A stretch of DNA of 64,000 bases, from positions 40,052,001-40,116,000 of the forward strand of contig OZ024743.1 of assembly GCA_964016885.1 (NCBI GenBank). Direction: 5' to 3'. The notes beneath the pieces are model-generated. The model was not told the origin of the DNA, searched no databases, and was given only the letters and a program-made list of their open reading frames with translations. Within the stretch, counting starts at the first letter, position 1, and every line of letters starts with the position of its first letter. Source of the stretch: Eledone cirrhosa (lineage: Eukaryota). Made by a program: the position numbers and the translations under genes. Of this stretch, positions 853-62,430 are shown piece after piece.

Positions 853-3529
853 CTGACTTGTCAGATGTTCTATTAACATTATAGACGACAGATGTAACTG
901 AAAATATATAGTAATCATGCCCATTATACAATGTTACATATTGAGGTATATTCTAGTTTATTTGAATAAATGTTTGTTGACATCGAATGGCGTGTACGTA
1001 TATAGCTAATAGCAACCAGATCTTAAGTATGTATAGCCTGTATAGTTAAATAAAATGGCAAAGTCGGAATTTGATCTCTGTATTGGGTTGGAATGATGAA
1101 GAAACTTCTCGGTCCCACAGCATACCGCATCACCGTTCTTGTTAGATAGTCTAGTGCTCAGGACAAGACGTCCGTTTATAAATTATTTCCGATGAAAATG
1201 ACCTTTACCAACTTCATAGAATGCCATTTAGCATATCTCAGAGGAAATATATTTCATTTCAATTGTAATCTGAAAGGCGGATGAGAAGATTAGTAAGATA
1301 TACAAACAGGAGAATTTCCGCAGAGTTACATCATCATATGTACCCATTGTTTTAAGCTAAAACTTTCTCAACGTTGAATCTATTTCGAATAGTGAGCTCG
1401 CCGTACAACAGAGCATTTAAATATGCTTTCCTACACGGTACCTAATTATTGTCTTACAACATATTACCTAATTCATTTTCACTACGCAGGAACTAACTTT
1501 ATTTTATTAAAGAATGCATACTTTTATTTGACTTTATACTACACGATTTGTTTTACTACACATAATCTATATTGGTTTTACTGCATAGTGTATATCTTTT
1601 CTTACACAATACGTAGAATATTTCTACTATACACTACGTAATCTCGACGTACTGCCCAATAACTAAGTTCAAATATTTCCCTTTTGTTACATTTGTGTTA
1701 ACCTTTATCCTTCCATTTCCATATCCATAAAAAGATAAAGAAAATTATGCATGAGTGGTGAAAGTAAATATGTGTAAAAATGGTTAATTTAAAATTCAAA
1801 TTGAATTTAAAATAGAGACGACGTTGAATATATTAGCTAACAATTAAATATCGCATACGTTATGTAGAAAATGATTTAAACATTCTAATTTAAAATACAC
1901 ATTAGGGAGATATATATATAAAAATACAGAAAATATAAATGTTAAAATAAAAAAAAAAATTATAATTAGGTGGAAAACAATGGAGACAATTTTATTGATT
2001 TAGGAATGGTAGAGGGGAACATATTAATTTGACACCGGGAAAAGTATGCAAATATAAAGATAACAACAATACGAACATTAACATTTTTTTTAATTTATTA
2101 CAGCAATATGAAAATGAGTGCAATTAATAAACGATATTATATATATCAATAATATTAATAATTAATTTTAAAATTGTTTGGAAGTTAGTGAATCTAATTT
2201 ATCAGGTAGAGAACCTATAAAGTTCAACGTTACAACATAAACAATACCAACAATAGCACCACGTTAGGCACACCATCGATGTTCTATAATGATTCTCTAT
2301 GAAATTTCAGTAGGTAAAATACCTGAAATTTGACAAAATGATGTAAATTTTACAATACATTACAAAATTATTTTACACGTTTAGTCTTTATTGTCTACTT
2401 AATTTATATTGTGTTTACTAATTTATTTAGTTATTATTTTTTTACTTACTTAATTATGAAAAAAGTGATTATGTTTTGGAAGTCACTACAATGCATGTGG
2501 GTTTGTACATATTAAGTCAACAAAATTGAGGTAACAAAATATGGGACTTGAGAAGTGGCAGAAAAAGAAAATGTAATATAACAGAGATAAGGTTGCTTTA
2601 CCGCTATCATTCTTCACACCATTTGTTTCCCTTAATATTTACAACACCACTCACATTGTAACGCCTCCCAAGACAAACACATTTCATATCCCACTATCTT
2701 CAGGCAAACCTCAACACAACATTAATTATTTTTGTACTTGCCTGATCAATTACTTCCATACTTTCGACATACTTATACCAACGAGGTTTCTGCTGCAACC
2801 ATATATTTTCTAGGAAAGGGAGATAAGCATTCTATACAACGTTGATGTTTCTAACAAGGTTAAACCATGTAATAACCGTGACCGCTTCCATTTGTTTCAG
2901 TAATATAATAATAATGGTGTAGAATTAACATTAATAGTCTTTCAACCAATTGGGTTAAACCTTCACCTCAAGTCTCCCTCTGGATTTTGCCATGGATACA
3001 GAAACAGAGATAAATTTTATTGTCGTAGATTACAGAAAAAAAAATTATAACGGTGAATAAACCTCTATAGTTGTGTTATTCCGTTATTCAATGAAGAATA
3101 GAACATATATATGTTCACAATATAAAGTATGCTAGCATTAATGACCACTTTAATTGTCAAAAATCAATAAGAAACACGATGATCTTCGGATCAAATGGGT
3201 TAAATAATATTTCCGAAGATCATGAAATGTCTCATCAAAAACATACCACCAAAACATAGATCAGTACCGCCACTTCCTAACAGATTAAACGACAGACTCG
3301 AATTCTATTTCCCAGTGTAGTGTGGACAAACGAGATTTCTATAAAGAAATACCACAAGCGAGATTTCTATAAAGAAATATTCCATTATTGAAATGTGAAT
3401 GTCTAGAACCATTTCTGTATATGAATTCATCTACTTATATGTATGCTTGTATGCATTTACATATGTGTATATGTACATATATACATTCATATTTATACAA
3501 TCTATATAAACACCTATACACACACGTGC

Positions 3530-3667
<138 letters not shown>

Positions 3668-8985: not shown

Positions 8986-9043
8986 ATACCTGATGATATC
9001 ACCGGATTCATACGGAACCCGGTCATTGAAATGATCATAGTAT
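8986..9043 (+). ncRNA. Type-I hammerhead ribozyme, intact core (AUA cleavage site after 9039)
   Basis: Stem I atac/gtat; CTGATGA 8990-8996; stem II accgg/ccggt; GAAA 9028-9031; palindromic stem III tgatca; UA. Confidence 0.85.
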
Positions 9044-10377: not shown

Positions 10378-12778
10378 TTATTAAAATAACAGATTAAAGT
10401 GTAAGCAAAGAATCGCTGCTTTCACCCTTAACGGGATCTTCTGAAACTAACAAAGTCAATCTGTAAACGCAGAACTGGATATTTCAAAAAACGTTGCAAC
10501 CGGAGGAAGACAGGAAGACGATACTTTGGTTCGTGGTAACGTTCGCTGGCAAAGAACGGGAAAAAACGAATAATACGTCATTAATAGGAGCGGTGAAAAA
10601 CAATTACGCGTAAAGACAAAACCACGTTTATGGTATAAAAGAGGTCGTAGACTAATGTTCTCTTAGGTGGTGCATAGAGACGTTCTCTGGCAATGAATGA
10701 AAAAACAAAGATAATAAGTCATATGTGGAGCGTGGAGAACAATAGCACGCAAAGACAAAACCACATAAATGGTATAGCAGAAATCGTAGACTAAATTCTA
10801 ATTAGGAGACCAAATGAATCTCCGCTACAGAGTTAAGAACAAAGTAAATAAATACAATACAGAAGTAATAGAAACAAATAAATACATACACGCAAACAGA
10901 TACGTACATACACAAGCATACGCAAAACCTTACCATGGGTATACAAAACCACGCACATATAAATATGTGTGTGTGTGTGTATTCTTGTGTACAAATAATA
11001 AATAATTATATAAACGTATATAAGTAAATAAATACGTATATAACAAGCGCACACGCATACCTACATATAAATACACGAATGTTCGGAGACGTGAGTCAAC
11101 TAAAACAAGTACACATATACACACACCCACCATACGTACGAACCTGCACACTCACGCGGACGCAAAACTCCCGTGTACGCATAGCCAAACCCTAAATACC
11201 AGAATATGTAAAAATGATATGCTATAACAGTCAAATATACGTACGAGAAGGTATACATACCTTCACATCACATACGGGTAATATATACTTACCTATGCAA
11301 ATAAGTAAAGGAATAAACAAAACATATACTTAGCTCCCACATAAAGACGTAAATATCCACGTATAGATCGTGATATCCGTTAGGGTATAACGTGGGTCTG
11401 TAATACAGGAAAGTTTTGTGCAATTTATGTTTACAGGCCGAAATTGCATCAGATTTTTTGTTTAAGATGTGGTCTGTAGCGTGGAGAATTTCCAGAGCCT
11501 CAGCGGCGCAGAGGTCACATGGTCTTTTATTTCCGTTATACGATCTAGCCCTAGCTAGGATCTCCCAGTGTAACTTATATTGGGTGTGGTTGTCTTTTAA
11601 ACTCCAGATATAAGCTGAAAGTGACGTCATATTCCTTCTTAGAGGGTAACGAAAAGAATGGGTATGCATGTAAAGACGCTGCTTGAAACTATTGGCGGTT
11701 AACCCTATGTAGGCCCTACGGGACGTGGGTGTTACAACCTTACATTTGTAGACAATGTTACTAGAGAGGCATTTCCCGGATAGGGGGCAATCAGCCCGAT
11801 TCCTACAATTACAGTTAGTACTAACTACAGGGTTGCACGTGTTCCTACGGCTAGGTAGTTTAGCTAAATTTGAAGCTGTGATGTTATGTGCAAGGTTAGG
11901 AGTTGTAGAGTAAGAAATGTTAATAGTATTTCTATTAAAAATGTTACTATATTTATGTGTAGGGGAAAATGCTTCGTAATAAGGGAAAGAAAGTTCTTAG
12001 CTAATGGTGTGGCCACCTCCATATTATATGGTGGGTTAAACCAACAAATGCGACTGGATCTATTTCTTCTAGGTCTATATTCGTACTCTGTATATGCTAC
12101 CTTATCGACAAATCCACTTCGAGCAAGCGCTTCATTGTAATAAGTGGAATGGTCGTTGAAAATGCGCTCGTTGGTGGAAAGACGGGAAAGCCTCAACGAA
12201 ACGTTTCTTACCAGGTTCTTGGTTATGCTGGCAGGAGGGTTGGAATGCTTACTTATGTAATTAAGCGTATCATTCGGCTTTCTATACGGGTAATACAAGC
12301 CATTCAATAAATTGAGGGTAACGTCGAGGTAATTAACGACCGAGAGATTGGCCTCAACCTGTATAGAGAGGTTGAAGCCTTTAAAGAAGGCTGTGAGTTC
12401 TTTTCTGAACCTGTCGCAAGCACGAGATCCGCACTTAGTCATGGTCAAAAGACCATCGTGACGGTACAAACCACCGCCCGCGTTGGGGAATTCGTCCTTG
12501 ATAGAGAAAAGAAGGAAAAGGCCAATAAGATCAGTAACCTCCGCAGAGTCACTGGCGCCCATACTCACGGCGAATGGGGTACTATTGGATTTTTTAATCC
12601 AAATAGAGTCGTCGAAATTAATCACCGACTTTCGCGCATTAAGGATGACATCAACTCAAATATATATATATATATATATATATAGTAATAATAAAACATG
12701 TGAAGACTAACATCCAAAGAAGATCCCGTTAAGGGTGAAATCACCGATTCTTTGTTTAAACTTTAATCTGTTATTTTA

Positions 12779-37982: not shown

Positions 37983-38088
<106 letters not shown>

Positions 38089-38131
38089 GATATTAAAGAA
38101 ATGGAAATTACATTTATAAAACCATATTTAT

Positions 38132-38191
38132 TTCATTATACATATTTCAGGGATATCATATTAAAAATATGGTATGCCCTCTTCAGATAAA
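38132..38191 (-). ncRNA. Type-I hammerhead ribozyme in the Penelope pLTR
   Basis: Minus strand reads tttat-CTGAAGA-gggcata..tatgatatccct-GAAA-tatgta-TA-atgaa. Confidence 0.8.
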
Positions 38192-39480
38192 ATACAATAT
38201 ATAGACGGCTTTATAAATACATTTGACATACCTTAGAGTTCACAACTTCAATTTAAAAAGTTGTTACGGTAGTGAAAATGTTAAGGACGGTTAGAAAGAA
38301 AGACGGAGAGAAAAAAAAGAAAAAAGGAAAAAGAAAAAGAAGGAGAAAAGAAAAAGAAAGAGCGGAAGGTGAAGAAGATGAAGAAATGTATGTAAAGAGA
38401 AAATCACCAAATGAGAGATCTATGAGGGAAGGGGGTACTGTAATTATTCATTTGTTTATTTATTTATTTAGTGTTAAGGATACGGGGAGAAATAAAAACA
38501 AAATAAAGAGAGGTAGATCGATTAATATCTATTATACGAGGTGGGAGAGATAGGGGAGGGGTGATATATAGGAGATAGAGTTAAAACAACCGATATAAGA
38601 GTAGAAGGGAGGAGGAGAGGAGATATACTTAGAAACAAAAATGATAGTTTTAAAATATTATGTTTCATCAGTCTATCAATTCCTATGAATTATAATGTAA
38701 ACATCAATATTCCTGAATGAGACACATATAAATAATGTGTGAAAAAAATAGTGACTATATGTTTAGTTTAAAAATTCATAGGTTTATAATCAAAATCTGA
38801 GATAAAACCTCAAAAAAATACTGGAATACATAGGTAAATATGTGTTTTCATGAAAAAAGAGAAAAGAGAAAGAAAAAGAGAAGGTTATCTCAAACTGACT
38901 TTATAGACACATGTGAGTTTACATGATCAGCTCTGTAAATTTGTATTTCATATGGAACTCTTCATTGCGTTAAAAAGATTTTACCATACACATAAGTGTA
39001 CATATATATATATACATAAAATATACATTATTAATAAGAATAATATTCTTGCCCTTTCTTACATGATTATCGTACAAGCATAGAATAGAACAGGTATCAA
39101 TATATTAAAATATTAAAAACGCCAAGAATATTTTCCTCCCCAGAATATCTAGGGCCGTAATAAAAACACAGTGTGCCCAGCATATCAATCAATCCCTCCA
39201 ATTTATTTGACAATACTGCCAAGTTTATTAGAAGCAATCAGAGTCAAAAGCAAACAAAACCAAAATTATTCACCAAACTTATTTAGCAGAAATCCTTCAA
39301 AAAAACTCTTATATTTATCTAGCATGAAAATGTTATTCAATAGATTTGGATCATCACCGTTTTAAGGTAGTTTTATTACATTATTAATTATATATTCATG
39401 AAGAAGGTTTAAAGAATTGAAGGAATCGAAAGATTTATCGCCAAGTTTTCTAAAATAATTAAAAGTCTTAAGTAAATATA

Positions 39481-39984
39481 TTACATTTTAAACTTATACT
39501 TATATTTAAAAGTTGAGTTCAATCTATGTCTGCAGCAACTGAATAAATTGGTCCGTAAATTAAGGGGATTTTTAGATTTTAGTATAAAGAATATCTCCTC
39601 TGCGCAGAGGTCACATGTCTCAGAGGAGGAATTAAAAGGAATCCCTCTTGAGACTATATTCCAAACCGTCGAATATCCAACGTTATCATGTTTAAGTTGC
39701 CAGAGTAAGCCTGATAGTGATGTTGAAGATTTTTTGTTTGGATCTGTGAAAGAATTCTTGTGATTATTATAGCGAAGTTTAAATTCTGTCGAGGTGGAAC
39801 CAACATAATTAAAAGAATTTAAGTCAGTTTTAACATTACAGTTGTATATTATATTTTTAACTAAGCAATTGTTATTTAACGGGCATTTAGATCTATCTCT
39901 ACAGTTACAGTTGTTTACTTGAATATTGTTTATGCTATTATCGGTATTTTGGCTAGGTATGTCAAATTTATTAAGGTATGTCAA
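39481..39984 (-). CDS. GIY-YIG endonuclease domain of the Penelope-like element (C-terminal remnant)
   Basis: CNCRDRSKCPLNNNCLVKNIIYNC..FNYVGSTSTEFKLRYNNHKNSF...TSLS...CDLCAEE...CRH. Confidence 0.88.
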   Translation of the reverse strand: MTYLNKFDIPSQNTDNSINNIQVNNCNCRDRSKCPLNNNCLVKNIIYNCNVKTDLNSFNYVGSTSTEFKLRYNNHKNSFTDPNKKSSTSLSGLLWQLKHDNVGYSTVWNIVSRGIPFNSSSETCDLCAEEIFFILKSKNPLNLRTNLFSCCRHRLNSTFKYKYKFKM

Positions 39985-40028
39985 ATTTATTAAGGTATGT
40001 CAAATTTATTAAGGTATGTCAAATTTAT
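39953..40028. repeat. 19-bp tandem repeat (aggtatgtcaaatttatta) x4 at the inversion junction
   Basis: Directly visible. Confidence 0.9.
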
Positions 40029-40053
40029 TTATAAAGCCGTCTATATATTGTAA

Positions 40054-40113
40054 TTTATCTGAAGAGGGCATACCATATTTTTAATATGATATCCCTGAAA
40101 TATGTATAATGAA
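40054..40113 (+). ncRNA. Type-I hammerhead ribozyme in the inverted pLTR
   Basis: tttat-CTGAAGA(40059-40065)-ggg..ccct-GAAA(40097-40100)-tatgta-TA-atgaa. Confidence 0.8.
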
Positions 40114-40241
40114 ATAAATATGGTTTTATAAATGTAATTTCCATTTGTTTAATATCGTAAAATACTCCAAAACCTGTTGAGTGCTTTATATCAGTTATAA
40201 AATATTTACTCGTTGTAACCCAACATTTTAAATAAAATTGT

Positions 40242-40290
<49 letters not shown>

Positions 40291-40346
40291 GTCGTAAAAT
40301 AAGAAAATTTAAACAATTAAAAATCAACTTACTTACTAAAATATTC

Positions 40347-40428
40347 ACTCCAACTAATTAGTTTCTGTTTGGGGATAAATATAGTTACATAATATAACTA
40401 TAGAGAATTCCATACGTCATCAGGGAGT
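40347..40428 (-). ncRNA. Type-I hammerhead ribozyme, intact core (GUU site)
   Basis: Minus strand reads actcc-CTGATGA-[long stem II incl. tatagtta/taactata]-GAAA-ctaattag-TT-ggagt. Confidence 0.8.
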
Positions 40429-40781
40429 CTATTCTCAGCTAAGTTCTCAGGCGATGCGCGGACACTAGGAACTCATATAAAAATAATAATAATTCAGTGG
40501 ATGGAATAAGGCTAGCGAGGACTAAATTCCGGAGCACTGAAAAAATTCACTGCCTCTGGTCAGTGGCAGATTCTAAAGAATCAATCACGTGACACTGAGG
40601 TTAATCAGTTAGGAGCGGGGTGGTATTATGACAAGAGCCTACTACTACCACGAATCAGCAGTAAATTTTGGCAAGTTTTGCTCAACAAATAATTTGGAGA
40701 TAAATATAGAGAATTAGTACATTTACCAACATATGTGTACAGATGTTCACCTATGCTAGCAAATATATATGTTATGTCTTA

Positions 40782-40870
<89 letters not shown>

Positions 40871-41499
40871 CATATATATATATAGATATATATACATATA
40901 TATACATATATATATACACATACATATATATACATATATATGTAGATATATGTATATATATATATATACATAGTAATAATAATAAATGTGAAGACTAAAA
41001 TCCAAAGAGGGCTCGATAAGGATAAACATATATCAAATATATGAGAACCATAGAGCAAATATTTATTAAAATAACAGATTAAAGTTTGAGCAAAGAATCG
41101 CTGCTTTCACCCTTAACTGGATCCTCTGAAACTAACAAAATCAATCTGTAAACGCAGAAGTGGATATTTCAAAAAACGTTGCAACCGTTTTTTGAAATAT
41201 CAACTTCTGCGTTTACAGATTGACTTTGTTAGTTTCAGAGGATCCCGTTAAGGGTGAAAGCAGCGATTCTTTGCTTAAACTTTAATCTGTTCTTTTAATA
41301 AATATATATATCCCTATATATATACATATATATACAAACATATATATATACATATATATACATACATATATATATACAAACAAAACAAGACCACAAATTT
41401 GACAAGGAAGACATTATTAAAAAATTGTCAACATATTTTAATTTGATGTAACGAATGTATAGAATAATAATAATAATAATATTAATAATAATAATGTCC

Positions 41500-41618
41500 G
41501 TTTACAATTGTTTCGCTACTCCATATAATATTCCTGGATCAAATGAATATATATCATTATTGATCTGGTTCAGGTGAAAATAATTAACATAATTAAAGAT
41601 AGAGCGGCTCATCGGAAC
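41500..41618 (-). ncRNA. Type-I hammerhead ribozyme, CCGAUGA core variant
   Basis: Minus strand reads gtt-CCGATGA-gccgctctat...atggagtagc-GAAA-caattg-TA-aac. Confidence 0.72.
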
Positions 41619-42372
41619 TTCAAAGGAATATATATTAAAATAAGGTAAGAAGGTTACATAATGTACTGTTCCATATATTGGTATATCCTTATGGTGTCCT
41701 GGGTGTATCAATTGTCTGCCATAATCAAGCAGTATTCTTCTTTCGAGGCTGCATTGTGTGAGATCTGCCTATGGGTAACAACATGGCCGCCATATTTACC
41801 TTATTAATTAGAGGGTGCTTTCAGGGCAGGTAACTCCTCGAGAGATTAGAAATTGTGGCTAGTTAAGTGCTAATTTTTTAAATTTTTTAATTGAGAGACA
41901 ATGCAGGGGAGGTAACGATAGAACGGAGGTAACTATAAGCTGTCAACATCGAAGGGCTAATTCCTTCGCTAACAGAATATGTGATCCAACATATTCATCT
42001 ACCCCCATTTTTACTTGTAGCTAATAAGTTAAATAGTTATAACTAACTTAGACAATTATAAGTTACCTCCCCTACATTTTCTCTCAATTAAAAAATTAAA
42101 AAATTAGGACTTAACTATAAACTACCCACAATTTCTAATCTCTCGAGGAGTTACCTCCCCTGAAACCACCCTCTAATTAGTAAGGTAAATATGCCCATTG
42201 GCGGCCATCTTATTACCCATAGGCAGATCTCACACAAGGAAGCCTCGACAGAAGAATACTGCTTCATTATGGTAGACAATTGATACACCTAGGACACCAT
42301 AGTGAAATACCAATATATGGAACACTACATTATGTAACATTCTTTCCTTATTTTAATTTATATTCCTTTGAA

Positions 42373-42471
42373 GTTCCGATGAGCCGCTCTATGTTTAATT
42401 TTGTTACTCAATAATGATATATAGTCATGTGATCCAGAAATATTATATGGAGTAGCGAAACAATTGTAAAC
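42373..42471 (+). ncRNA. Type-I hammerhead ribozyme, CCGAUGA core variant
   Basis: gtt-CCGATGA(42376-42382)-gccgctctat...atggagtagc-GAAA(42457-42460)-caattg-TA-aac. Confidence 0.72.
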
Positions 42472-43035
42472 GGACATTATTATTATTCTATACATTCCTT
42501 AGATCAAACTAAATATGTTAACAACAATCTTTTAGTAATGTCTTCCTTGTGAAATGTGTGGTCTTGTTTTGCTTAACTAATGAATATTTCCAGCTCTGTG
42601 CGCCTACCTTCTGCATGAACCCAGCCACCTAGCTGCTTTCCACTGCATATTGCATCACGTGACATCGAGGTAAATCAGTGAGGAGTGGGGTGTTAAGAAG
42701 ACAGTAGCCGAACTATTACTATGAACTATAGTAGCACTTTTGGCAAATTTTTGCTCAACAAAATAATTTGGAGATAATTTGTTGAACAAAAATTTGCCAA
42801 AAGTGCTACTATAGTTCATAGTAATAGTTCGGCTACTGTCTCCTTAACACCCACTCCTCACTGATTAACCTCGATGTCACGTCATTGATTCTTTTGAATT
42901 TGCCACCGACCAAGTAGGCAGTGATTTTTTCAATGTCTTGGAATTTAGTCCTCGCTTGCTTTTTTCCATGCACTGAATTATTTTTGTATAAGTTCCCTGT
43001 GTCCACGCATCGCCTGGGAACTTAGCTCAGAATTG

Positions 43036-43119
43036 ACTTCCTGATGACGAAAGGCATTCTCCATGTTGTTCCATTCGGAAACCATGTTTATTCCCTTTCA
43101 GAAACTAATTAGCTGGAGT
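43036..43119 (+). ncRNA. Type-I hammerhead ribozyme (U16.1>C, probably inactive copy)
   Basis: acttc-CTGATGA-cgaaagg..cctttca-GAAA-ctaattag-CT-ggagt. Confidence 0.72.
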
Positions 43120-43156
43120 AAGTAAGCTAATTTTTATAATTTTCTTATTTTACGTC

Positions 43157-43245
<89 letters not shown>

Positions 43246-44455
43246 ATGATAGTAACAAACACGGAATATATATCACTACAGCATCATTATTTATTTCATT
43301 ATATATATTTCAGGGATGGCGGGAAAGAGTAAGTGCGTGCGGGTCTATGTGTATGTTTGCGAGTGAAAAATAATGTGTTGGGAGGGACAACCACAGATTT
43401 GTCCTGGTATTTATTATTCGACTTCGAAAGGATGGAATGAGAAGATGTTCTCGACGAGATTTAAACGCAGAGAGCTGAAACGTGCCACTGAAGCTTTCTA
43501 TCCGATCTTCTATATATTTTTCATTATAGTGTATATTATTAATTGTAGCTTATATATAGTAGACGTTTGTATTACATTAATTGCATATGTATTGTATATA
43601 TTGTAATATAATTCACAAATGGTAATCTATAGATTTTAGGAAGACCTGGTTATCGATATGAGGTAACATTGACTTCTTTTTCTTTTTCTTTATTTTTACA
43701 AAGACATTGATTCTGCTCTGCAAATTCGAATTTCTATCACTTTAGGTTTTGTATAATCAGCATTAGGTTCGAGAATTTCTCCTTACATTATTATTATCCA
43801 TTTTTTCGTCATATAATTACCAGTCTAATGAATATATTTAAATATATTTAAGGTAATTAAATATCTGATCCAGACATCCAAAACAATGCGAAGGTACGTA
43901 TTAGAACGGATGTAATAATGTAGCAACCAATTACTTTCATGTAAAACTTCTACTAAAAAAAAATAAATGTAACCACATAATAAACTCCTGTGTTTTATCA
44001 TATGGGCTAACTTAAGGGACGGCAACAGAGGGGATATGGCCAAAACAGGTGCACAGATTTTCATATTTAAGATATGATACGAAATATATATAGACCATTT
44101 CCAAATTCTAAAAATGTACCGAAAGTACTTCGTCGCAAAAGAAAAGGTTGTTTATCATTGGCCTAAAACAATCTATGCAAACATTTAAACAGTAGGAATA
44201 TCTTTTTTTTACTTTATCATATTATTTCAGTTATTTTCTGGTTTTCTTTTCAAGATCCCTTCTGATCATCAGTTATATAAACCACAGAATATAGATGCAT
44301 GACAATTACAAATACCAGAACAAGAGGACAGAATCACAGAAAAATAATTTCGCATTGATTTATAGGAATATGTGTTATTACGGAATATGGATATATCATT
44401 AATATAAATACAATATAGTCAAAATAAATGCAGAGTTTTGTATATAATTAATACA

Positions 44456-61012: not shown

Positions 61013-61199
61013 ATTTATTAAAATAACACATTAAAGTTTAAGCAAAGAATCGCTGCTTTCACCCTTAACGGGATCTTCTGAAACTAGTCTTCAAATTTAT
61101 TATTATTACTATAGAATATATATATATAGTATATAGTATATATATATATATATAGGCAAAAGGGCTATTTAATTTGTTGGTAATTGAACAAATGAACAG

Positions 61200-62430
61200 C
61201 ACGTAAAACCCTAATAGAATGTAATAACCATCTCTAGACAAGGGCCGACAGAAATATCAATTTTGATATCACTATGGGATCATGTCACTCAGCGCACGTA
61301 ACAGGCCTCGTGGGATTATTCATTAATAATGTACTGCATAGAAAAATACCAGAAATGACTGGATGTTTATATCGCGATGATATGTTACTTTTAATTTAAA
61401 ACCATAGAATGGTGAAATTAATAGGGAAAGGAAATCCATAATACAATTTTTGAAAAGCTACAACGTTAATTTAGGAATCGGGAATAATTACAAAATCGTT
61501 AACTTCTTAGATGTAACCTTAAACCTTAGCCCAGGTATTATCCATTCAATAAAATTAACGAACATCTAAATTACGTAAGTTTCAATTCTAATCATCCTAG
61601 AAATATTAAAAACACTATTATCAATAGCGTCCAGCAACGGATTTAACGCATCTCTGCTAATAAAAATATTTTTGATGATAAGGCAGAATACTACAATGAA
61701 GCTTTAGATAGAGAAGGATACTCGAATAAAATTAAATACTTTGATAACAATAACGCGACAAATCATCCTAGAATTCATTATAATAACAATAAACAATTCA
61801 ACTTAAATAGTAAACCAAACAAAAAAGAACTAGAAATATTATTTGGTCATCTCCTCCATTCTCATTAGGCGTTAAAACACATTTAGCAAAGCTATTTTTT
61901 AAAGCACTAGATAAATGTGTTCCCAAAGCCCACAGATACCGCTCTATTTTTAACAGACACACTATAAATCTATCCTACTCTACTACTATGAACATAGCAC
62001 AAAATATAAATAGAATTAATAATAGAAACTTAAATTTAAACCAAGATAGCAATAATAATATTTCTAACAACAATATTCATAATAATAGTACCGTTCCTAA
62101 TAACAACAACTCCAGAATATGTAATTGTAGAATTAAATCAAACTGCCCTTTACAAAAAACTTGCTTAGACAAAAATATAATTTATAAATGAACAGTTAAA
62201 ACTAGAAATAAAGTATTTAACTATACAAAATTCAAAGAAAGCTGGTACAACTATAAACATACATTTAATAGGGCTTATAAAAAATCTTCCACTTCACTTT
62301 CACATTTAATTCGGAATTTAAAGAACAGCAGTATAGTCTATTCAATATCTTGGGAACGATCTCTAAAGCACCTGCATACCGAAATATCGCTGTGTCAAGA
62401 ATCTGTAATTTATGTATAGAGGAATGTCTT
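61200..62430 (+). mobile_element. Degenerate Penelope-like element (probably Naiad-type), RT-to-EN fragment
   Basis: TMGSCHSAHVTGLVGLFI, CLYRDD, VNFLDVTLNL, SNHP, SPPFS, CNCRIKSNCPLQKTCLDKNIIYK, STSLS and CNLCIEE. Confidence 0.85.

Follow-up and report, generated by a model that had tools for sequence, protein, structure and literature searches.

Nested inverted repeats in Eledone cirrhosa are probably successive Penelope-like insertions in one TA-rich tract

Inverted repeats nested one inside the other, with hammerhead-like motifs on both strands, raise the question of whether they form one genetic element or several that came to face each other. We addressed this question at a locus in Eledone cirrhosa (assembly GCA_964016885.1) that occupies positions 40285-43161 of a 64,000-nt window (OZ024743.1:40,052,001-40,116,000); positions below are window coordinates unless they carry a locus number. 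The original prediction had read the locus as one nested fold-back element with four ribozymes. Instead, we find that 40287-43160 consists of four insertion units from four high-copy families, with TA-rich tracts between the units except for the last two, which abut. We consider it likely, with a probability of about 0.8, that the four are separate insertions written successively by the reverse transcriptase-endonuclease of Penelope-like elements (PLEs). Judged by its layout, the footprint is the already published PLE insertion architecture in (TA)n.

The symmetry of the locus is real. A repeat search and self-BLAST of the window recovered an outer inverted repeat (40245-40693 against 43202-42774; 77.7% identity over 457 columns, E 1e-97) and an inner one (41378-41916 against 42574-42062; 82.6% over 556 gapped columns, E 2e-170). 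The arms of the inner pair are 92.5% identical across 496 ungapped sites, and their strongest block (41585-41792 against 42199-42406) reaches 92%. Hairpin 1 (41059-41305) has arms of 120 nt with 96% identity and hairpin 2 (42654-42885) has an identity of 91.8%. The inverted repeats and both hairpins, all of them part of the original prediction, are well above chance. Self-comparison also revealed a direct repeat, 40584-40703 recurring as 42654-42777. The predicted lack of coding capacity was likewise borne out: the stretch has 13 stop-to-stop frames of at least 60 aa, the longest of 116 aa and most of them over TA repeats, and tblastn with a putative 713-aa PLE protein (P0001, described below) found no match inside 40285-43161. 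The G+C content of the window is 36% and TA repeats are abundant.

We assigned each part of the locus to its genomic family. The genome measures 3.0 Gb, and the family candidate counts given here are first-look figures that represent lower bounds. The left outer arm (40287-40784, minus strand) is one complete 498-nt unit of a family that we call L. Its 3' end, at 40287, adjoins (TA)n. More than 40 genomic copies match the unit at 96-98% identity, and the family, whose unit boundaries we defined from 11 loci, has at least 3063 candidates. The right outer arm (42778-43160, plus strand) is a 5'-truncated sense copy of a family that we call R, spanning unit positions 94-496. It is 93-95% identical to 40 copies, from a family with at least 2789 candidates, and its 3' end, ACGTCTTTC, adjoins (TA)n; 17 of 18 aligned R copies from other loci have the same end. 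Directly upstream lies the left arm of hairpin 2 (42654-42777, minus strand), an internal antisense fragment of R that covers unit positions 80-205 and is 96-98% identical to R copies. Because L and R are only 75-81% identical to each other, the outer arms do not represent the halves of a single event. They are, as judged from these identities, separate insertions of two related but distinct families, which the original prediction had offered as a possibility, and what looks like an "outer inverted repeat" is one L copy and one R copy whose orientations are opposite by chance. We also considered the left arm as an old, decayed R copy, to which its identity of ~80% to R copies would correspond, and rejected this candidate; the arm belongs to its own young family at 96-98%.

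L and R units follow one another head to tail at a spacing of 526-538 nt, with one hammerhead-like motif per unit and no open reading frame (ORF). By these features, L appears to be a protein-less, tandem-forming, hammerhead-bearing repeat of the animal non-LTR retrozyme kind (LTR, long terminal repeat). Between successive L or R units lies a conserved spacer of 35-40 nt (L034-L044 and L014-L024; for example L035:1437-1476 and L015:1992-2026). It contains a small hairpin, GTTCTGCA, with a C-rich loop and then TGCA.AGAAC. The copies have two alternative 3' ends, and the spacer fills exactly the interval from one to the other; the L and R copies in the window end just before it. A reading of the inter-unit gap as internal (TA)n, in which the elements would carry their own target, was rejected: the gap is conserved non-TA sequence with a hairpin. 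Since the spacer is not TA, the TA tracts are flanks and not part of the unit.

These assignments largely refute the idea that 40285-43161 is one composite nested fold-back element that arose or transposes as a whole and yields a rod-like ambisense ribozyme RNA when transcribed. In favor of such an element, the nested inverted symmetry exists, and the hammerhead-like motifs occupy mirrored places on the two strands. However, the outer arms come from two families, each arm resembling the genomic copies of its family much more closely than it resembles the opposite arm, and the parts are found separately thousands of times. We sampled 33 other loci with 1.5-kb flanks (11 for L, 11 for R and 11 for the family of the inner pair), and neither the composite nor its junctions or centers were repeated at any of them. 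Furthermore, all of the four motifs but that of L are defective or non-canonical. We therefore regard a single composite element as very improbable.

Hairpin 1 comes from a third family, one that encodes a protein. Its right arm (41186-41303, plus strand) is a pseudo-LTR end without a tail that stops at AATAAAT, followed by (TA)n, and is 92-97% identical to positions 3394-3582 and 151-270 of L059, a locus with an ORF of 713 aa. Its left arm (40969-41182, minus strand) is a 3'-terminal pseudo-LTR stub of the same family that matches L045-L048 and L059 and extends ~90 nt beyond the end point of the right arm. In L059, a 270-nt direct repeat flanks the 713-aa frame (reverse-complement coordinates 1-270 equal 3244-3513, 98.9%), and the end of the repeat is the hairpin-1 sequence, then (TA)n. 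Single-armed relatives of hairpin 1 continue for 2 kb into the ORF. The hairpin-1 family has at least 3885 candidates; arms measure 218-1020 nt in L045-L048, and many copies match only positions 1-188 of the probe 41000-41310. A genome search with the 713-aa ORF gave 107,416 first-look candidates, and an open frame of exactly 713 aa was present in 14 of the 116 top matches listed. Read contigs of ~60 nt (three runs, one sample) contained more than 100 alternative hairpin joints and a high word depth for this family. Because junctions vary between loci and the reads hold more than 100 joints, there appears to be no palindromic master copy, and each palindrome would be a separate insertion.

The evidence that the 713-aa protein encoded by this family (P0001) is a PLE protein is mixed. 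By eye, it contains a YRDD box and, near the C-terminus after a cysteine cluster, the motif IVY...YIG. It has 1249 homologues at E<=1e-5, and among the 120 listed most are ~700-730 aa long and most lie on contigs of ~2.3-3.5 kb. In Atlas look-alike clusters of P0001, GIY-YIG occurs in 26-50% of members and RVT_1 in 92% of the members of one cluster, which is a lead and not a test.

The inner pair leads to a second Penelope-like family. Arm A (41378-41916, minus strand) is 5'-truncated and spans unit positions 782-1330, in the 3' untranslated part of that family, and ends in a TA-rich tract near the family's "short" 3' end. Arm B (41913-42654, plus strand), also 5'-truncated, spans unit positions 634-1410 of the "long" 3' form of the same family and stops 162 nt before the family 3' end, at the start of the R fold-back (42654). 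The family has at least 2277 candidates, with copies 89-91% identical to the window arm and 93-96% identical to the reference copy L003. Five copies (L002, L003, L006, L010 and L012) encode an endonuclease region by tblastn (34-42% identity), and L010 and L012 additionally encode part of the reverse transcriptase region. In copies elsewhere, the endonuclease region is 37% identical to residues 517-703 of P0001. The window arms lie almost wholly within the untranslated 3' part. On this evidence the inner pair is best read as the 3' ends of a second protein-coding Penelope-like family. The original prediction had traced all of the parts to non-coding hammerhead elements; this holds for L and R and does not hold for the inner pair and hairpin 1, which derive from 3' ends of protein-coding Penelope-like families.

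Three head-to-head pairs (40969-41303, 41378-42654 and 42654-43160) lie inside the locus and a fourth lies beside it (38086-40244). In each window pair the 5'-truncated ends meet centrally. Four 3' ends are retained, those of the two hairpin-1 arms, of arm A and of the R sense copy, and all of them face outward into TA-rich tracts. The 3' ends in the window adjoin TA or TA-rich tracts, the exceptions being arm B, which is shortened, and the R antisense fragment, which is without a 3' end of its own; 3' ends at such tracts were also found in L003-L012 and L059. The tracts themselves are a (TA)n at 40245-40286, between the neighboring arm F (described below) and the 3' end of the L unit, which is likely the target microsatellite; a TA-rich microsatellite at 40785-40968 that separates insertion units; and a (TA)n at 43161-43245 at the 3' end of the R copy. 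Tails are one-sided: in hairpin 1 only the left arm has one, and of the two inner arms A has the short 3' form and B the long.

The 33 sampled loci showed the same architecture with different details. An inverted, 5'-truncated partner was present at the 5' end in 18 of the 33 (5/11 for L, 7/11 for R and 6/11 for the inner family), and its junction coordinates differed at every sampled locus. Thus, the inverted architecture that the original prediction expected elsewhere in the genome was found, and the shared centers that it expected were not. Most inverted partners retain their own outward 3' end. A minority (L034, L022, L004, L008 and the R unit of the window) are internal fragments or 5' inversions, L004 and L008 being 5' inversions with junctions inside the element. 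A direct 5'-truncated copy lies upstream in 9/11 L loci, and truncation points vary in all three sampled families. Downstream tails, composed of the 35-40-nt conserved spacer and unit positions 1 to ~80-88, are present in 5/11 L loci and 8/11 R loci. At one R locus (L018:1463-1496), two R copies are joined the other way round from the usual head-to-head pairs: they meet tail to tail, and 2 bp separate their 3' ends.

These properties closely resemble those described for PLEs. According to passages of Craig et al. 2021 (PMC8557442), PLEs show strong 5' truncation and partial tandems that form pseudo-LTRs, carry an inverted 5'-truncated copy at the 5' end, and have a tail of 30-40 bp at one end; (TA)n is preferred by Naiad elements and by almost all Hydra-clade families. 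Here we find 5' truncation with partial tandems, the inverted 5' copy, the one-sided tail and the preference for (TA)n. The same passages describe Hydra elements as short (<3 kb), with a single ORF, and canonical hammerheads as universal in Hydra. As in the Hydra clade so described, the insertions here show 5' truncation, pseudo-LTRs, an inverted 5' copy, a one-sided tail and (TA)n sites, and the autonomous 713-aa-ORF element is ~3.2 kb long with a single ORF of ~710 aa and a C-terminal endonuclease-like box. By contrast, the tails here are ~90-230 nt and not the 30-40 bp given in that account, and, unlike the Hydra clade as described there, the 713-aa-ORF family has an ORF that Pfam does not recognize and had no hammerhead where we looked for one.

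We next weighed fold-back DNA transposons and miniature inverted-repeat transposable elements (MITEs), in which the hairpins and inverted repeats would be terminal inverted repeats. The shape fits, with arms of 120-540 nt, short loops, high copy number and AT-rich sites. However, the arms are 5'-truncated copies of longer elements of one orientation that also occur single-armed, their centers vary between loci, the read contigs contain more than 100 different joints, and the parent elements carry reverse transcriptase-endonuclease ORFs and direct pseudo-LTRs. We saw neither fixed termini with target-site duplications nor a transposase-coding partner. An origin as fold-back transposons or MITEs is accordingly highly unlikely.

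Could the palindromes be assembly artefacts, such as chimeric fold-back reads? Passages of Craig et al. 2021 (PMC8557442) report that structures of this kind cause assembly problems, and the read contigs, ~60 nt long, could not verify the locus. Against this explanation, the arms differ by 4-8%, unlike an artefactual self-copy, and the same architecture with different centers recurs at 18/33 other loci. We find an artefact hardly credible.

A more substantial alternative is that all of the inverted arms arose by template switching, the reverse transcriptase snapping back on its own cDNA. Some structures look as this would predict: the R antisense fragment (unit positions 80-205) lacks a 3' end of its own, exactly as expected, and L034 and L022 are similar; the inversion junctions of L004 and L008 lie inside the element; and truncation points within pairs are similar (782/634 in the window and 521/551 in L009). 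However, the two arms of most pairs retain separate 3' ends of different forms, one tailed and one tailless, where self-copying would give the same end. Such differing forms were found in hairpin 1, in arms A and B, and in L036, L037, L038, L041, L014, L015, L021 and L023. In addition, the enzyme described in excerpts of PMC11167929 extends both strands. Snap-back as the source of every inverted arm is therefore rather improbable. Of the original prediction's proposal, Penelope-type formation of inverted copies agrees with the layout at 18/33 loci, and template switching does not serve as the general cause and fits the R fold-back only.

Successive insertion by a PLE enzyme would account for both kinds of pair as follows. 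The reverse transcriptase-endonuclease would insert units one after another in one TA-rich tract. At one cut, each strand would prime its own cDNA, as published in-vitro work suggests; the two cDNAs would stop at arbitrary points and then be joined head to head. In the R unit, the growing cDNA would fold back and copy itself for ~125 nt, leaving an inverted internal fragment. Priming on two strands fits hairpin 1 and the inner pair, because each arm there has its own 3' end, and self-copying of the cDNA fits the R fold-back better, because the inverted piece is without a 3' end. The in-vitro work concerns the purified Poseidon PLE protein of Anolis. According to the excerpts of PMC11167929, this enzyme cuts both strands of DNA, with a preference for AT-rich sequence, and extends both; its reverse transcription begins at two internal positions, and these set the bounds of the tail. 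Activity of the kind those excerpts describe would yield two-armed units like the ones here, with outward 3' ends and one tail. The protein in that report belongs to a different PLE clade and host.

Several points weigh against successive PLE insertion. The proposed mechanism is drawn from the layout and from the enzyme of another species; the read contigs of ~60 nt could not confirm the assembly of the locus. The 713-aa ORF returned 0 families in a Pfam search and 0 matches in a PDB sequence search, and the case for a putative reverse transcriptase with a GIY-YIG endonuclease comes from motifs recognized by inspection and from the Atlas look-alikes. A hammerhead motif was looked for in the 713-aa-ORF family and not found. 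The 3' ends of L and R matched L059, the 713-aa-ORF locus, only weakly (23-54 nt, E 5e-4 to 6e-3), which points to no particular PLE as the mover of the two families. The junction of arm B and R at 42654 would need an extra deletion or template switch. Finally, over 493 sites arms A and B have 2 shared, 20 A-only and 16 B-only differences, which would fit one two-armed event or two insertions of similar age alike.

We then turned to the hammerhead-like motifs. No Rfam hammerhead family matched any candidate site when we scanned the whole window at the gathering score, 39500-44000 at E<=10, or stretches of 141-171 nt around three of the four sites at E<=10. One further Rfam scan was swamped by microRNA look-alikes in TA repeats, and no hammerhead was among the best 150 of its 389 rows. 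The silence of Rfam is weak evidence, because compact PLE-type motifs such as 40059-40108 also go unreported. A strict descriptor (6/6 helix II pairs and 5/5 helix I pairs) found 0 motifs in the window. Relaxed to 5/6 and 4/5, it found 4 in the window, compared with 0.06 per shuffle, as well as 20 in the 11 R loci and 21 in the 11 L loci. The window matches are the L copy (40423-40352, minus strand), 40059-40108 (plus), 38186-38137 (minus) and 8990-9039.

The motifs of L and R share one design. In order, they have the 5' strand of helix I, CUGAUGA, an unpaired C, and a 6-bp stem with an internal loop and a distal hairpin, followed by an unpaired A, GAAAC, the palindromic loop UAAUUA, GUU and the 3' strand of helix I. 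In an alignment of 31 copies (26 distinct), 95.7% of 668 cells pair, compared with 36-44% when partners are slid. Four helix II pairs change on both sides, giving GUAUGG/CCAUAC, GUAAGG/CCUUAC or GAAAGG/CCUUUC; this covariation represents few independent events, namely the L/R split and two L sub-variants. With these compensatory changes in support, the motifs of L and R read as minimal hammerheads of the PLE type in which helix II is long.

The four motifs at the locus differ in their state. The L motif (40335-40447, minus strand) is supported by descriptor, fold and pair counts and has an intact core, with CUGAUGA at 40423-40417 and GAAAC at 40365-40361, and a long helix II with one A.A mismatch. 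Its GAAAC-UAAUUA-GUU agrees with the triplet rule, and its predicted cleavage, as a dimer, falls between 40352 and 40351. The R motif (43025-43119, plus strand) is decayed and does not match the descriptor. Its core is intact (CUGAUGA at 43041-47 and GAAAC at 43101-05), C replaces U at position 16.1 (43113), making the triplet GCU, and the 3' strand of helix I has an 11-nt deletion; GUU is kept in 17/18 R copies from other loci. The two inner motifs read CCGAUGA ... GCGAAAC-AAUU-GUA, in which the GUA triplet is acceptable. The one in arm A (41503-41615, minus strand; CCGAUGA at 41615-09) has a long helix II insertion and neither a descriptor nor an Rfam match, and in the one in arm B (42376-42468, plus strand; CCGAUGA at 42376-82) 20 nt of the helix II insertion are missing. 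In textbook descriptions, U4 of the hammerhead is invariant and a change at position 4 would be disabling. Here, 13 of 14 inner-family copies from 11 other loci have C at this core position; one has U, a CpG-to-TpG change. Helix I of the inner family is ~3 bp, and the fold was not recovered in the typical copy L003. Accordingly, where four ribozymes had been claimed, we find one motif that appears intact and is predicted to be active as a dimer (L), one that appears decayed (R) and two that look non-canonical.

Relative to its unit, the motif of a given family always has the same polarity. It is found on both strands of the locus because copies of one polarity are inverted in the DNA, and the proposed likeness to viroid-like ambisense RNAs falls away: unlike in such RNAs, the ribozyme motif of each family here is in one polarity only.

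The design of the L and R motifs can be compared with PLE hammerheads described earlier. In excerpts from Cervera & de la Pena 2014 (PMC4209133), PLE pseudo-LTRs carry minimal type-I hammerheads, some of which are expected to act as dimers. As described there, the motifs here have a conserved core (in L and R), an unpaired nucleotide after A9, a larger helix II, and a 1-bp helix III whose loop, UAAUUA or AAUU, is palindromic, with dimer action expected. Unlike the motifs in those excerpts, they have a helix II of 6 bp with an internal loop and a distal hairpin of 4-10 bp, a long helix I, an extra unpaired A before G12 and, in the inner family, C at core position 4, and they have no Rfam match.

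Compact motifs of the PLE type are also present near the locus. Those at 40059-40108 (plus strand) and 38186-38137 (minus) lie in the neighboring arm F and its inverted twin, and a third lies at 8990-9039 (plus). All three have CUGAAGA or CUGAUGA and a helix II hairpin; the first two continue GAAAU-AUGU-AUA and the third GAAAU-GAUC-AUA. Similar motifs occur in the flanks of L002, L006, L010 and L060, and the ones in the window are unlisted by Rfam.

L and R also resemble retrozymes, whose metazoan units measure 150-450 bp according to parts of Cervera & de la Pena 2020 (PMC7229834). Like the retrozymes in these accounts, L and R are non-coding, AT-rich and head-to-tail, with one type-I-like hammerhead per unit, and bear PLE-type insertion scars. 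By comparison with the same accounts, their unit is longer (531-538 nt), copies mostly contain 1-2 units and not long arrays, and the hammerhead is of the PLE minimal type, not a canonical one with loop-loop contacts. Retrozymes are proposed to be non-autonomous PLE derivatives in parts of Li, Clavereau & Pollet 2026 (bioRxiv 10.64898/2026.07.22.740005), and retrozyme-like families with PLE-type insertion scars fit that proposal.

Directly left of the pile-up lies another two-armed Penelope-type unit (38086-40244). It consists of a long arm from 38086 to ~40012 (minus strand) and the short arm F at 40013-40244 (plus), and a 147-nt stretch at the ends of its arms (38086-38232 against 40013-40159) has 98% identity. 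The long arm contains a remnant of an endonuclease-like ORF, found by tblastn at 39511-39987 (minus), and a 19-nt unit is repeated four times in tandem at the junction of the two arms (39936-40029). On the right flank, 43246-43317 resembles part of F in inverted orientation (43288-43317 against 40120-40091, 96.7%). Sequences of F and of 43246-43317 recur next to TA repeats in L002, L010, L018, L022, L028 and L032. Elsewhere in the window, an ORF remnant at 11376-12655 (minus) is 96-97% identical to residues 287-713 of P0001, with a frame break near residue 516, and another at 61199-62356 (plus) is from a different family (35-47% identity). Finally, L021 has two tRNA-like matches adjoining its R-family insertion (L021:802-873, minus, and L021:1266-1337, plus; 42.4 and 37.7 bits against an Rfam tRNA gathering score of 29), which may be a tRNA-derived short interspersed element or tRNA genes.

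Collectively, these data correct the view of the locus as a nested ambisense ribozyme element: what was taken for one would be an ordinary PLE footprint together with protein-less passengers, landing repeatedly in one TA repeat. Two features appear mildly new, a long-armed hammerhead variant that Rfam misses and a PLE family that multiplied with C at core position 4. The inner PLE family has thousands of copies with this core, which might mean that the CCGAUGA variant still cleaves or that cleavage is dispensable for spread, a suggestion that we regard as doubtful. Craig et al. 2021 (PMC8557442), in the passages on this point, leave open whether PLEs need ribozyme cleavage to spread. Both pairs with two 3' ends have one tailed and one tailless arm, which lends modest in-vivo support to the two-strand, two-start-site priming seen in vitro. 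The minimal hammerheads with long arms in this genome escape the Rfam models, and this matters for the annotation of genomes of this kind.

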